Source: Escherichia phage JH2
Sequence record: KF055347
Reading direction: 5' to 3' (one strand)
Length of the DNA: 64,000 nucleotides
Below, piece by piece: positions 45,636 through 57,911 of this stretch. Every line of letters starts with the position of its first letter. Position 1 is the first letter of the stretch. The position numbers and the translations under genes are program-made. Below the pieces are notes generated by a model that was not told where the DNA came from, ran no database searches, and saw nothing but the letters and a program-made list of their open reading frames with translations.

Positions 45636-45644
45636 AACAAAAAA

Positions 45645-45664
45645 GGCTCCTTTTTATGGGAGCC
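45645..45664. terminator. bidirectional terminator-like hairpin between convergent blocks
   Basis: GGCTCC (45645-45650) pairs with GGAGCC (45659-45664), A/T-rich flanks. Confidence 0.5.
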
Positions 45665-45671
45665 TTAAATT

Positions 45672-46043
45672 TTACTTTTCAGTATTCTTTGTGTTCTTTT
45701 CAGTAATAGCTTGGAGGGCTGATACTGATTGAGCCAGATTGTTCACACTATCAGAGAATTTATCAAGGGTCTTAGTAAGTTTTGCGTTCTCACCCTTAAC
45801 ATTCTCTAACTGGACTTTCTGGTTCTCCATCCCTAGCTGAAGCAGCCTCATATCAGACTGTAAATCACGAATAGCTGAATAATTACTTTTGGAATAATTA
45901 TCTAACTGCTGTAACTTTGTTGTGATAGACACTTCTTGTTTACCACTTGCAACCTGCATTGTGGTATACATCCCAATAACACTAAAAATACCAACTACAA
46001 TTGCACCAATATTGTTTTTAAAAGCTTCCTCTAGCCACTTCAT
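45672..46043 (-). CDS. hypothetical membrane-anchored coiled-coil protein
   Basis: 123 aa; N-terminal TM IGAIVVGIFSVIGMY then helical region; last gene of the late block. Confidence 0.45.
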   Translation of the reverse strand: MKWLEEAFKNNIGAIVVGIFSVIGMYTTMQVASGKQEVSITTKLQQLDNYSKSNYSAIRDLQSDMRLLQLGMENQKVQLENVKGENAKLTKTLDKFSDSVNNLAQSVSALQAITEKNTKNTEK

Positions 46044-46237
46044 TTATTCTCCCCCTTAAAAGCTTTTTCTAAGTTATCTACGAACTCATCATCAATAGGT
46101 GTGTCTGTTTTACTCGCAAGGTATCTTGCAAGTCTAAAGAACACTTTCTCAATCATGTATTCACTTAGAAGGGATAAAATGAGTTTCCAGAAGAAGCTAC
46201 CTAGATTTTTTAGAAGAATTGCTAGGATTGTAGGCAT
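46040..46237 (-). CDS. hypothetical small hydrophobic protein
   Basis: 65 aa; hydrophobic N-terminus then acidic tail. Confidence 0.4.
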   Translation of the reverse strand: MPTILAILLKNLGSFFWKLILSLLSEYMIEKVFFRLARYLASKTDTPIDDEFVDNLEKAFKGENK

Positions 46238-46316: not shown

Positions 46317-48662
46317 TTAAGCAGTTCTCACCCAAGCCATTAACTTATAGAACTGGTTAATTACACTAAATGCTGAACCAGAACCTGTACCACCAGTGTT
46401 ACCACTTACTGTGTGGCTGTGAGCACCAATACCAACTGAGTGAGCGTGGTTACCATTTGATGCAGCAGTACCACTTACTGAGTGTGAGTGATTCCCAGCA
46501 CTACCCGTTTGTACGGTATTTCTGTTACCATCAGAATCCCAATCACCCCTTGTACCACTTGGTTGCGCACCAGTAATATAACCATGTGTATGAGCACCTG
46601 TTGTATTCGTTGAACCACTCACTGAGTGGGTGTGAGCACCAGTAGTGTTAGTGGTTTTAGTACCGTAGTCAAAGCTAGAGGTTGTCGCAGAGAAACTATG
46701 CGTGTGTGAAGGTAAGTTACCAACAGCTAACGTCACAGAATCTGAACCACCTGTTGTAGCAACATCTGAACCGTTTGCTGCTGCAATTCTGATAGTTCTA
46801 CCAACACCATTGTTGAGGTACGTCCAAGTTAGACCAGGAAGTGCTGTATTAGGGTTAACATTGCTGTTAAACCAAGTTACAATACCTACTGGATAGATTT
46901 TATTAAGGTCTGTAGAGTCACTAATTGCCTGTGCAATCTTCTGGTCAGTTTCAGCTTTAGTGTATGCACCAATATCTGAAGGGGTTGGTTTAAAATCAGT
47001 TGTGTAAAGCTGTGCTTCCCCAGCATATCTGCCGTCTTTGTCATAGGCATAGGTGAATGTTGCCAGTCCATTTGAGCCATACACAAAAGAGATTCCTCTT
47101 GCATGTGCAGCAGTCTTATTAGAGTGAGCAACATGAATTGCCAACTCTTTCAGTCCACTAGTAACAGCATTGTTTCTGACAAAACCTGAGTACCCAAGAT
47201 TAAACCCTGAAGGGTTTTCAAGGTTATCTACAGATAATGTCATTAAGGATTGGTTTAATAACTGAGTTTTAACAAAATATCTAGCATCTAAGTTAGAAAA
47301 GTTCGAAGGTTGAACTTGACCAGTGATTGCTAAATTCTTATTCGCAACAATTGCTGATGGTTCAAGGGCAATTTGAGTACCAGAGTAACTATTGTTTAAG
47401 GTTACCACATTAGAGTTTGGGCCACCTACACCTAACCACCACCTCGATACGTTCGCGGTATCCACACCACGGATATATAGCGGTTGCCCCTGTGTCAAGT
47501 TTCTTAATACTAAACCTTCGTTATTTGATACGATAGTCTGCACATTCACGAAAGTGTTTGCCACATTAAGTTTAGGGAGATTACTCAAAGTAGCTGCTGG
47601 AATATATCTAGAGTCAATATTAGCCCAATCAGAAGGTTGAACTTGACCAGTGATTCTGAAGTCCTTGTTTACTGCGACATGCCCATTGTCAAGTCTAAGA
47701 TAAGAACCATACACATAGTTGCTGATGAATACAGCAGGTGTATTATCACCATTTCCTACATACCACTTACCAGAACCATCATTAGCTTCGGCTTTAACGT
47801 ATAGTGCAGCATTTGCTACAGTATTTTTCAACCTTAAAGCAGCACTGTCACTAATAATAAGTAGGTTTCTGCTAAACGTGTTAGTGCCAGTGAAATTGTT
47901 ATTAGCAGCTAACTGTGCAAATCTCTGATTAGCAACTGTCTGTGTGAAGTATCTAGCATCTAAGTTAGAGAAGTCAGAAGGTTGAACTTGACCAGTGATT
48001 GCTAAAGACTTATTAACAGAGACATTGCTTGCAATAGTCAAAGCTGAGTCATATTTATTATTGTACAGTTGCACTGCATCAGAGCCATTTTTACTAATAC
48101 CAACCAACCATCTAGCTGAACCATCTAGGTTTACACCTTCAATATATTGTGCATTGTTTGCATTTTGGTTTCTAAGGCGAAGTAAGTTAACATCACCTTG
48201 AATGTTCTGAGTTCCAGAGAATGTGTTTGTGACAGCAAGCCTTGCATATCTTGCATCATTCTCTTCATTAGTTCTCATACCAAGCTCATTAGGGCTTGGC
48301 TTATTCAGAGTATGATAAACAGTTGCCGACCTTGAAGCATCTGCAATAGTTAGTTTAAGACCATTTGCGTTGATTTTAAAAGTCTTTAAAACATCCCCAA
48401 TATTAATCTCAGAAGAACCTGTAGGGTCAAAGACTGCCTTACCACCATAAAGTAACTTAACAATACCTAAGTCACCCGTCATAGTACTACCAGCAATCTG
48501 AACAAATCTCTCAAGTTTAAAAGACGCTAAGAAGTCTTGATAGGTCATTCGACGGTCTTCATCACCTAGCATTTCAGGTCTCTTTTTAACCCTGACATGA
48601 AGAAGGTCATCTGAACGGATTGTGTCGATTGAGTTTAATTCACTCAACTTGTAATCTGCCAT
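46317..48662 (-). CDS. long tail fibre protein with triplicated internal module and His-rich C-terminal tip
   Basis: 781 aa; ITGQVQPS(D/N)(F/W)(S/A)N(L/I)D(A/S)RY occurs three times; C-terminal HTHS/HSHS/HAHS motifs shared with the neighbouring fibre gene. Confidence 0.7.
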
Positions 48663-48682
48663 TATAAATTTTCCTCTTAAAA

Positions 48683-48698
48683 GGGGCTATAAAGCCCC
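48683..48698 (-). terminator. hairpin between the two fibre genes
   Basis: GGGGCT-ATAA-AGCCCC followed by a T-run on the minus strand; preceded by TTTACA. Confidence 0.4.
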
Positions 48699-48708
48699 TG
48701 TAAAGAAA

Positions 48709-49878
48709 TTAAGCTGTTCTTTGCCATACATAAACTACAAAAGATGGTTGCTCAACACTAAATGCTTGACCAGCACCAACAGACCCTGTAGTTCCTGAAT
48801 GGGTGTGTTCTCCAACTCCAGTAATGCTAACCGTTACATTGTGTGAATGTGCCCCGATAGCAACAGTGTGTGAGTGCGAGCCAATAGCCACCGTGTGATT
48901 ATGATTACCATTAGACGCAGCAGTACCACTGATGGAGTGAGAGTGGTTACCAGCACTATCTGTCTGAACAGTATTCCTGTGCCCATCCCTATCCCAGTCC
49001 CCTGACGCACCAGTATCTTGGTAACCAGTGACATATCCATGCGTGTGAGCACCTGTTGTATTTGTTGAACCACTCACAGAGTGTGTATGAGCACCAGTAG
49101 TGTTTGTGGTCTTAGTACCGTAATCAAATGACGAGGTTGATTTAGTACCATAATCAAACGCACTAACTGAGACATTTGCACCATGACTATGATTTCCACC
49201 TGTTAGGTAGATAGAATGACTGTGTGATGGTAAATTGTTGCTAGACAAACTAACACTACTAGAGCCAAAGTTACTACCGACTGGCCTTGAGTTATCACTG
49301 TAGCCTACTAATGCCCGACCTTTTGATACCAACTCCCAAGTACCTCCACAAATTAGGTAGGTAGCTGGGTTAGCAGAGTTCATCGAAAGGTGCAATGTAC
49401 CAACAGGATAAGAAGCCTGAACAGCCTTATACAAGTTATTTACTGCTCTTGCTGTAGCGTACTTATCTGCATCCTCATTATAAAGGTTAGATGTTGTCCA
49501 GTTCTGGACATTACTTAAACCAACCTGCGCCTTAGTTGTATTGTGTGGGTTGCTCTTGTCATTAATATGCTGTTGAATAAGGCTATTAACCTCTTCTGAA
49601 GACATAATCTGTAGATTTGCTCTTGCCTCAGCTACATTAACAATATCTGATAAGTTATTTGCAGCAACTAACTGAAGAGCATTAATAACATTGTCTAGAC
49701 CAATTTGTGTCTTAGTAACACCATGAGGGTTATTTCTTAGGCTTGAGTGTGGAGCAAGTAGTTGCTCAAGAGTACATCTCTTATCCTCAATACCCTGCTT
49801 AAGATGGAAGATATCACTAAGGTCAATTGGTAAGGCTGCTTGAGGCAAGGCACTAATTTGAATTTCACCTACTGCCAT
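48709..49878 (-). CDS. tail fibre protein with His-rich C-terminal tip
   Basis: 389 aa; C-terminal ~120 aa near-identical to the long fibre tip with repeated HxH motifs. Confidence 0.65.
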   Translation of the reverse strand: MAVGEIQISALPQAALPIDLSDIFHLKQGIEDKRCTLEQLLAPHSSLRNNPHGVTKTQIGLDNVINALQLVAANNLSDIVNVAEARANLQIMSSEEVNSLIQQHINDKSNPHNTTKAQVGLSNVQNWTTSNLYNEDADKYATARAVNNLYKAVQASYPVGTLHLSMNSANPATYLICGGTWELVSKGRALVGYSDNSRPVGSNFGSSSVSLSSNNLPSHSHSIYLTGGNHSHGANVSVSAFDYGTKSTSSFDYGTKTTNTTGAHTHSVSGSTNTTGAHTHGYVTGYQDTGASGDWDRDGHRNTVQTDSAGNHSHSISGTAASNGNHNHTVAIGSHSHTVAIGAHSHNVTVSITGVGEHTHSGTTGSVGAGQAFSVEQPSFVVYVWQRTA

Positions 49879-49880
49879 TA

Positions 49881-57911
<8,031 letters not shown>

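Follow-up and report, generated by a model that had tools for sequence, protein, structure and literature searches.

The best-described relatives of the tail fibres considered here carry tips of one kind. The tip of phage T4 gp37 has histidine-x-histidine (HxH) motifs that bind Fe and a head that binds lipopolysaccharide (LPS) or OmpC (summarised in PMC12609058 and PMC5221442). C-terminal homology to T4 gp37 was noted in 2010 for both fibres of Felix O1, which were also found by mass spectrometry (PMC3185647). In the Felixounavirus structure of 2025, cryo-electron microscopy (cryo-EM) of phage Bas63 revealed that the short fibre gp26 and the long fibre gp27 both end in T4-gp37-like collar, needle and head tips, in which the chain bears HxH motifs and turns back on itself (PMC12609058). 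The architecture of two fibres with gp37-type tips is therefore already known. Here we analysed a window of 64,000 nucleotides (nt) of Escherichia phage JH2 (KF055347), to which all positions refer, and in it two adjacent minus-strand genes encoding the short tail fibre (STF) and the long tail fibre (LTF). JH2 is a Felixounavirus, i.e. a Felix O1-like myophage, and more than 250 Felixounavirus genomes match the region at 86-95% identity, none of them identically. Both fibres of JH2 carry gp37-type tips with the same rare type of head, which they probably owe to an old transfer of a head cassette between the two genes.

The two genes and the parts of their tips are given below. Equivalences to T4 residues come from a HMMER alignment to PDB 2XGF, the structure of the T4 gp37 receptor-binding tip, reportedly by Bartual et al. 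in 2010; head type T3 is one of the types defined further on.

46317..48662, minus strand: LTF gene, an intact open reading frame (ORF) of 781 amino acids (aa); orthologue of Felix O1 gp77 and Bas63 gp27
46713..46904, minus strand: LTF collar domain, aa 587-650 (YPVG...GNL); Gp10_C match of 25.8 bits, just below the cutoff of 27; aligns with the STF collar
46584..46679, minus strand: LTF ascending needle arm of the shared core, aa 662-693; HxH motifs H677/H679 and H691/H693
46494..46583, minus strand: LTF head domain, aa 694-723; aligns to T4 gp37 head residues 932-959; head type T3
46407..46493, minus strand: LTF descending needle arm, aa 724-752; HxH motifs H725/H727, H739/H741 and H748/H750
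48709..49878, minus strand: STF gene, an intact ORF of 389 aa; orthologue of Felix O1 gp76 and Bas63 gp26
49231..49419, minus strand: STF collar domain, aa 154-216; Gp10_C; matches T4 gp10 chains 5HX2 and 2FKK
49141..49212, minus strand: extra ascending needle segment present in the STF only, IYLTGGNHSHGANVSVSAFDYGTK; adds one HxH motif and one FDYGTK repeat; a BLAST gap and an internal repeat
49039..49134, minus strand: STF ascending needle arm of the shared core, aa 249-280
48949..49038, minus strand: STF head domain, aa 281-310, GYVTGYQDTGASGDWDRDGHRNTVQTDSAG; the same S-subtype residues in HK3, JLBYU28 and mio
48862..48948, minus strand: STF descending needle arm of the shared core, aa 311-339
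48799..48861, minus strand: extra descending needle segment present in the STF only, AIGAHSHNVTVSITGVGEHTH; adds two HxH motifs and is partly aligned to the seventh T4 HxH, SHGHT

Profile searches assigned both proteins to fibre families. The LTF is covered over its whole length by phrog_4277 (1-781 of 780, E=0) and has three matches to Pfam gp37_trimer (PF20744), and the STF matches phrog_2097 (E=5e-142) and Pfam Gp10_C (PF21939; 68.5 bits against a cutoff of 27, aa 154-270). Both Gp10_C and Phage_fiber, a phage-fibre repeat, were matched in both fibres, and the LTF collar aligns to that of the STF along the pattern YPVG...NP.T...TW...GR...NLPSH. The STF matches 2XGF over collar, needle and head with E=4.6e-28 (query aa 146-360, chain residues 18-230), and the LTF matches it with E=2.5e-14 (query aa 651-758, chain residues 105-216). 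The initial annotation, which had likened the repeated HxH motifs to metal-coordinating elements of fibre needles, was thus borne out as far as homology to the needle of the T4 gp37 tip is concerned.

In both tips two blocks of HxH motifs surround a His-free head segment of 30 aa, which gives the chain an out-and-back topology. The LTF has six HxH motifs, three ascending and three descending (first His at 653, 677, 691 and at 725, 739, 748), the ascending one at H653/H655 lying just upstream of the shared-core arm. The STF has nine, four ascending and five descending (219, 230, 264, 278 and 312, 326, 335, 344, 358), and all seven HxH motifs of T4 are aligned to STF counterparts. This pattern of 3+3 in one fibre and 4+5 in the other is common to most of the genus, and the two STF-only segments fit a longer needle in the short fibre. 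By homology with T4, each fibre would be a homotrimer whose C-terminus would fold into a gp10-like collar, a six-stranded needle and a small head at the apex. Each chain may run outwards in the ascending arm, turn in the apex head and come back in the descending arm, so that at every stacked HxH level six histidines from the three chains would hold one octahedral metal ion (Fe2+ in T4). From the number of motifs, six metal sites (3+3) are predicted for the LTF and nine (4+5) for the STF, the higher number being due to one extra collar-proximal segment on each strand.

Comparison of the two whole proteins by composition-adjusted BLASTP gave 119 identities over 235 positions (E=7e-55) with two indels of ~21 aa. 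Both gaps correspond to the STF-only segments, one per strand, which are closer to the collar than the shared core. This core is an ungapped stretch of 91 aa (LTF aa 662-752, nt 46407-46679; STF aa 249-339, nt 48862-49134), in which 77 residues (84.6%) are identical: all 32 in the ascending arm, 21 of 30 in the head and 24 of 29 in the descending arm. The similarity of the two adjacent His-rich C-termini, on which the initial annotation had been built, is therefore real, far above what chance would give, and extends well beyond the HxH motifs. Its description as a near-identical tip overstates the degree, given 85% protein identity, two extra needle segments in the STF, and final stretches (29 aa in the LTF, 50 aa in the STF) that resemble each other only loosely. 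The claim of closely similar DNA did not stand, for the core shares 76% nucleotide identity, the direct repeat 46408-46684/48863-49139 shares 77%, the heads share 68%, and the longest identical run between the cores is 17 nt. As for the motifs quoted at the time, GNHAHS in the LTF and GNHNHT in the STF are present, and GAHSHTV occurs exactly only in the LTF, the STF having GSHSHTV and GAHSHNV.

Low complexity could in principle produce such a likeness. The tip region is rich in His, Gly, Ser and Thr and internally repetitive (FDYGTK and GxHxH units), and the needle arms are alike in all fibres of the genus, as a mere compositional or structural constraint would have it. Nevertheless, the BLASTP E-value holds after composition adjustment, and the non-repetitive heads, at 21/30 identical between the JH2 fibres, are only 3-4/30 identical to the Felix O1 heads, which are under the same constraint. 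The related idea that one copy is a decaying remnant is met by two intact ORFs with ribosome-binding sites (RBSs), GAGGAA upstream of the ATG in the LTF and AGGAG in the STF, whose start adjoins the stop of the upstream gene. The orthologous proteins are virion components: mass spectrometry of Felix O1 virions covered 31% of gp77 and 9% of gp76 (PMC3185647), and both Bas63 fibres are visible by cryo-EM (PMC12609058). Constraint or decay is thus refuted as the explanation, and we give it next to no probability. Among 38 related genomes, an STF-type ORF is present in all 38 and a full-length LTF-type ORF in 33, being truncated in one (L005, phage Si3) and uncalled in four (L019, L032-L034); His-rich ORFs occupy both fibre positions in 34 of the 38. 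Both JH2 genes accordingly look functional and expressed. In Salmonella phage Si3 (84,419 bp), the LTF is found only as a C-terminal ORF of 311 aa and is either disrupted or mis-assembled; the Bas63 paper likewise calls the Si3 LTF incomplete (PMC12609058).

The age of the resemblance was read from synonymous divergence (pS) between the JH2 LTF and STF, with the core split into its three segments. Over ~20-25 synonymous sites per segment, pS is 0.44 in the ascending arm, 0.71 in the head and 0.70 in the descending arm. The conserved fibre N-termini of JH2 compared with those of Felix O1, HK3, mio and JLBYU28 gave a baseline of 0.08-0.17. Given these values and the 17-nt longest run, the two modules have been separate for far longer than the radiation of the backbone of the genus. 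They are kept similar by purifying selection, the ratio of nonsynonymous to synonymous divergence (pN/pS) being ~0.07 in the ascending arm.

These values bear directly on the first explanation given for the shared tip, namely that a recent duplication or domain exchange put an identical module on both fibres and made their receptor binding interchangeable. The wholly identical ascending arm and the 84.6% identity of the core speak for it, and events of this kind are seen in relatives, as in the heads of UAB_Phi87 and Felix O1 described below. At the DNA level it is contradicted by the excess of pS over the baseline, by the 68% identity of the heads and by the short identical runs. Near-identity at synonymous sites, below the divergence of flanks and backbone, is found in UAB_Phi87 (head) and mio (descending arm) and is absent from JH2. 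Moreover, the nine substitutions between the two heads are conserved as LTF and STF sub-alleles in JH2, HK3, mio and JLBYU28 and lie near host-range sites of T4 (PMC5221442). A recent swap is therefore very unlikely in JH2.

To place the two tips in the genus, cores from 34 genomes, a partly redundant sample, were aligned and their heads were typed automatically. Conservation of the needle arms extends to all fibres of the genus and, recognisably, to T4, while the head is hypervariable. The JH2 LTF shows this against Felix O1 and JLBYU28, with at least 90% identity on either side of a trough of 41-58% at ~46463-46636, which holds the head. Typing by a simple heuristic, which mis-delimits a few STF types (T8, T11), gave 20 head types, of which 18 are restricted to either LTF or STF. 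The remaining two, T1 (the Felix O1 type) and T3 (the JH2 type), are found in both fibre genes, and matched LTF and STF heads occur in 8 of the 34 genomes. HK3 and mio (GenBank) have the same T3/T3 configuration as JH2, and JLBYU28 has T3 on the STF only. In a neighbour-joining tree of the cores, LTF and STF are sisters in the JH2 group (JH2, HK3, mio; bootstrap 99%) and, independently, in the Felix O1 group (94%), whereas groupings by orthology received 0%; this sister signal comes mostly from the head. The similarity between the two JH2 tips has accordingly two sources, needle arms conserved across the genus and with T4, and a rare head shared in this lineage. What is specific to JH2 is that both fibres carry head family T3 ('GDWDxDGxRNTVQT'), and not a copy of the whole tip.

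Across phage records at large, the two shared head types differ in reach. Of the 86 phage records with T1, 80 are Salmonella phages, and T4-like (Lv5cm, GRNsp7) and P2-like (SEN1/4/5, RE2010) ones are among them. T3 was found in five records only, those of mio, HK3, JLBYU28, 'Campylobacter phage A132' and the temperate Citrobacter rodentium phage phiNP. Two unannotated records, MG065664 and MG065668 ('Campylobacter phage A132' and 'A126'), are 82-88% identical to the Felixounavirus fibre region and have T3 as the head of the STF; that they are Campylobacter phages, as their names say, looks doubtful. Two further Felixounavirus genomes of 88.4 kb and 87.4 kb, sampled as the IMG/VR copies L013 and L016, have LTF heads that hardly differ from that of T4 gp37, which indicates head exchange between Felixounavirus and T4-like phages.

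Several relatives show conversion between the two fibre genes in a fresher state. In UAB_Phi87 no nucleotide separates the LTF head from the STF head (100% identity, an identical run of 113 nt, head pS of 0.00), whereas the flanking arms have pS of 0.62-0.73. The Felix O1 heads are identical at 28/30 aa with a pS of 0.15, against 0.62-0.64 in its arms. The pattern in mio is different: its STF arms are 96-100% identical to its LTF arms, with a pS of 0.11 in the descending arm, and the synonymous sites of its STF head are LTF-like, but the head keeps the S-type residue at eight of the nine differing positions, the ninth being the isoleucine of the LTF. We read these three patterns as short-patch conversion through the conserved arms, with selection keeping two heads.

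Taken together, gp37-type tips on STF and LTF with a shared head type that came from an old cassette transfer between the fibre genes are the explanation we favour, and we consider it likely overall. Most likely, the head cassette would have moved between the two genes with the conserved needle-coding arms serving as homology. In the JH2 lineage this would have happened long ago, as the near saturation of synonymous sites suggests, and the two heads may since have become fixed as a pair of stable sub-alleles, with different residues at 9 of 30 positions.

The tips are, however, also mobile between phages, and each could have been gained independently from other phages on the same host, without LTF-STF transfer, both being selected for the same host surface. 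JH2 itself is a mosaic, with an LTF tip that is mio-like (94-99%) and unlike that of JLBYU28, and an STF tip that is HK3- and JLBYU28-like (88-99%) and unlike that of mio. The occurrence of the Felix O1 head type in T4-like and P2-like Salmonella phages and the T3 head on the STF only in JLBYU28 are also in its favour. By contrast, every sampled genome with a T1 or T3 head on the LTF has the same type on the STF (8/8), and direct LTF-STF conversion is demonstrated in UAB_Phi87 and mio, so a mechanism exists in the genus. Independent gain is thus unlikely, though less so than a recent swap.

Some points weigh against the old transfer that we prefer. Since the arms are conserved throughout the genus, the link between the JH2 LTF and STF lies mainly in ~30 head residues. 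The number of synonymous sites behind each pS value is small, and the LTF-subtype head occurs also in the unrelated phage phiNP, as independent gain would predict. The T4 positions assigned to the head differences below are approximate. An AlphaFold2 monomer prediction of the STF tip, from an alignment of the STF and LTF tips only, was uninformative (mean predicted local distance difference test score 33.8, predicted template modelling score 0.13), and trimerisation and metal binding therefore rest on homology.

Extending the favoured explanation, we propose that the needle-coding arms might act as built-in homology arms around a hypervariable head cassette of ~30 codons. Conversion would then take place between paralogues, recently in UAB_Phi87 and mio and anciently in JH2, and exchange with unrelated phage families, and selection in the JH2 lineage might keep two sub-alleles with which the virion would probe two related LPS-core epitopes in sequence. 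We hold this wider scheme as plausible rather than probable.

The rest of the fibre genes shows further exchange. The fibre N-termini of JH2 are 95-98% identical in nucleotide sequence to those of its relatives, and the proximal LTF shaft is Felix O1-like (94-99%). The mid-shaft segment 46997-47264 (more loosely 46950-47900) reaches only 9-35% in MAFFT windows against Felix O1, HK3, mio and JLBYU28, with flanks of at least 90%, and is another recombination mosaic within the gene; the Bas63 paper describes the β-helix repeats of the LTF as unexpectedly variable (PMC12609058). The LTF shaft contains three copies of a unit of ~110 aa, as many as there are PF20744 matches, and the units end in a recurrent motif of 17 aa. 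At the DNA level they show as a 68-nt repeat (47275-47342, 47602-47669 and 47947-48014; 74-91% identical). In the N-terminal half of the STF, the motif NPHxxTKxQ[IV]GLxNV occurs twice, as NPHGVTKTQIGLDNV (49687-49731, aa 50-64) and NPHNTTKAQVGLSNV (49507-49551, aa 110-124), in a stretch that is matched by many unrelated PHROG families of tail proteins.

The nine differences between the LTF and STF heads fall at core positions 35, 38, 40, 41, 43, 44, 49, 52 and 59 and are conserved across four phages (JH2, HK3, mio and JLBYU28). The head is enriched in differences, holding 9 of 14 within 30 of the 91 core positions (hypergeometric P=0.01). They align near T4 gp37 residues 933, 936, 938, 939, 941, 942, 947 and 953, an approximate mapping in a variable region of the alignment. 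Host-range mutations of T4 lie in the head at G938, T939, V941, G943, Y949, Y953 and A955 (PMC5221442). The proposal of a shared receptor-binding module in the initial annotation thus stands insofar as both fibres carry the same head family; identical specificity is doubtful, as 9 of 30 head residues differ in a conserved manner, at or next to T4 host-range residues 938, 939, 941 and 953. A dependence on the LPS core has been reported for Felixounaviruses (PMC8594841, PMC12892995), and the head type tracks host genus, T1 being mostly from Salmonella phages and T3 including E. coli and Citrobacter phages. By analogy with T4 the head, as the part that would contact the receptor, is likely to determine which LPS-core epitope is bound, and to judge from their sequences the two fibres probably recognise related, non-identical LPS-core targets. 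Host tracking and the reported LPS-core dependence together lead us to expect that JH2 infects E. coli or a close relative and that its fibres read related features of the LPS core.

The surrounding genes place the two fibres in the baseplate region. The neighbours are as follows.

49881..50183, minus strand: LTF-platform protein, 100 aa; PDB 9NDY chain S, 'LTF platform protein (gp025)', E=1.5e-63
50183..51040, minus strand: baseplate wedge protein 1, 285 aa; PDB 9NDY chain J, 'Wedge protein 1 (gp024)', E=6e-182
51043-52512, same strand as the fibre genes: baseplate J-like wedge 2
46040-46237 and 45672-46043: small membrane-anchored proteins of 65 aa and 123 aa, after the LTF gene

The order wedge 2, wedge 1, LTF platform, STF and LTF on one strand is that of Felix O1 ORF73-77 and also of the Bas63 baseplate (9NDY). 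Together with the 9NDY matches of the 285-aa and 100-aa proteins, it identifies the two fibre genes as STF (Bas63 gp26, Felix O1 gp76) and LTF (Bas63 gp27, Felix O1 gp77), and hence as the short and long lateral tail fibres. From its sequence match, the 100-aa protein would be the attachment point of the long fibre on the baseplate. The T4 fibre tip depends on the chaperones gp38 and gp57A. Beside the JH2 fibre genes, the ORF list and PHROG matches show no evident chaperone gene; a chaperone role considered for the two small downstream ORFs was set aside, as their PHROG matches are of unknown function and the 123-aa one is annotated as a holin in relatives. The label 'L-fuculose phosphate aldolase' that the JLBYU28 record gives to the homologue of the 65-aa protein appears to be mistaken.

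A hairpin AGGGGCUUUAUAGCCCCU followed by UUUU (48680-48697, minus strand) occupies part of the 46-nt intergenic gap, after the stop of the STF and before the RBS of the LTF, and the 71-nt fold has -17.6 kcal/mol. As a terminator between the two genes it was rejected, being weak (z = -1.65) and receiving no call from the terminator scan. At 45643-45666, where the plus-strand thyA and the minus-strand late and lysis genes converge, there is a hairpin that resembles a bidirectional terminator, AAGGCTCC...GGAGCCTT, with a T-run on either strand.

For host-range engineering, the head cassette is now delimited to ~30 residues (LTF nt 46494-46583, STF nt 48949-49038). It holds essentially all type-specific variation and tracks host genus across unrelated phages, and its flanking arms are already used for swapping in nature, so that designed head swaps have an obvious target in it. 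A further question is whether the two fibre sets of a Felix O1-like phage have to bear heads that match or complement each other. Two fibres of different length, each with a metal-stacked needle of the gp37 type, have been textbook for the genus since the Bas63 structure. For the movement of head cassettes between paralogues and for the matched-head state we found no description in the searchable literature, nor anything specific on the relation between the two tips in PMC10612097, PMC6669636 and PMC8300805. Backed by the 34-genome sample, this dynamic is a modest addition.

Among the known systems, Bas63 (Escherichia phage JohannRWettstein; Sci Adv 2025, PMC12609058; baseplate PDB 9NDY) belongs to the same genus as JH2 and has the same gene order. 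Going by the description in the paper, its fibres have seven (STF) and six (LTF) di-His motifs, compared to nine and six in JH2; how the two tips within one genome relate is not discussed there. A more distant counterpart is the tail collar fibre of phiNP (OR565852, WOZ57167), which has the same rare head in its LTF subtype, with 85.7% identity over 42 aa. This fibre has 282 aa, belongs to an unrelated 45-kb phage and has T4-gp37-like arms and C-terminus; the gene after it encodes a tail fibre assembly (Tfa) protein. T4 gp37 itself (2XGF) shares with the JH2 tips the homologous collar, needle and head, the two HxH blocks around a head without such motifs and the FDYGTK repeat. It differs in having seven HxH motifs (3+4) and another head sequence, and in sitting on a jointed fibre of four proteins. 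Felix O1 gp76 (ORF76) and gp77 (ORF77), the positional orthologues of the JH2 STF and LTF, have needle arms with 25-31 of 29-32 residues identical to those of JH2, and heads of a different type, identical at 3-4 of 30 residues. Within Felix O1 the two heads are near-identical (28/30) and the arms diverged, the opposite of the pattern in JH2.

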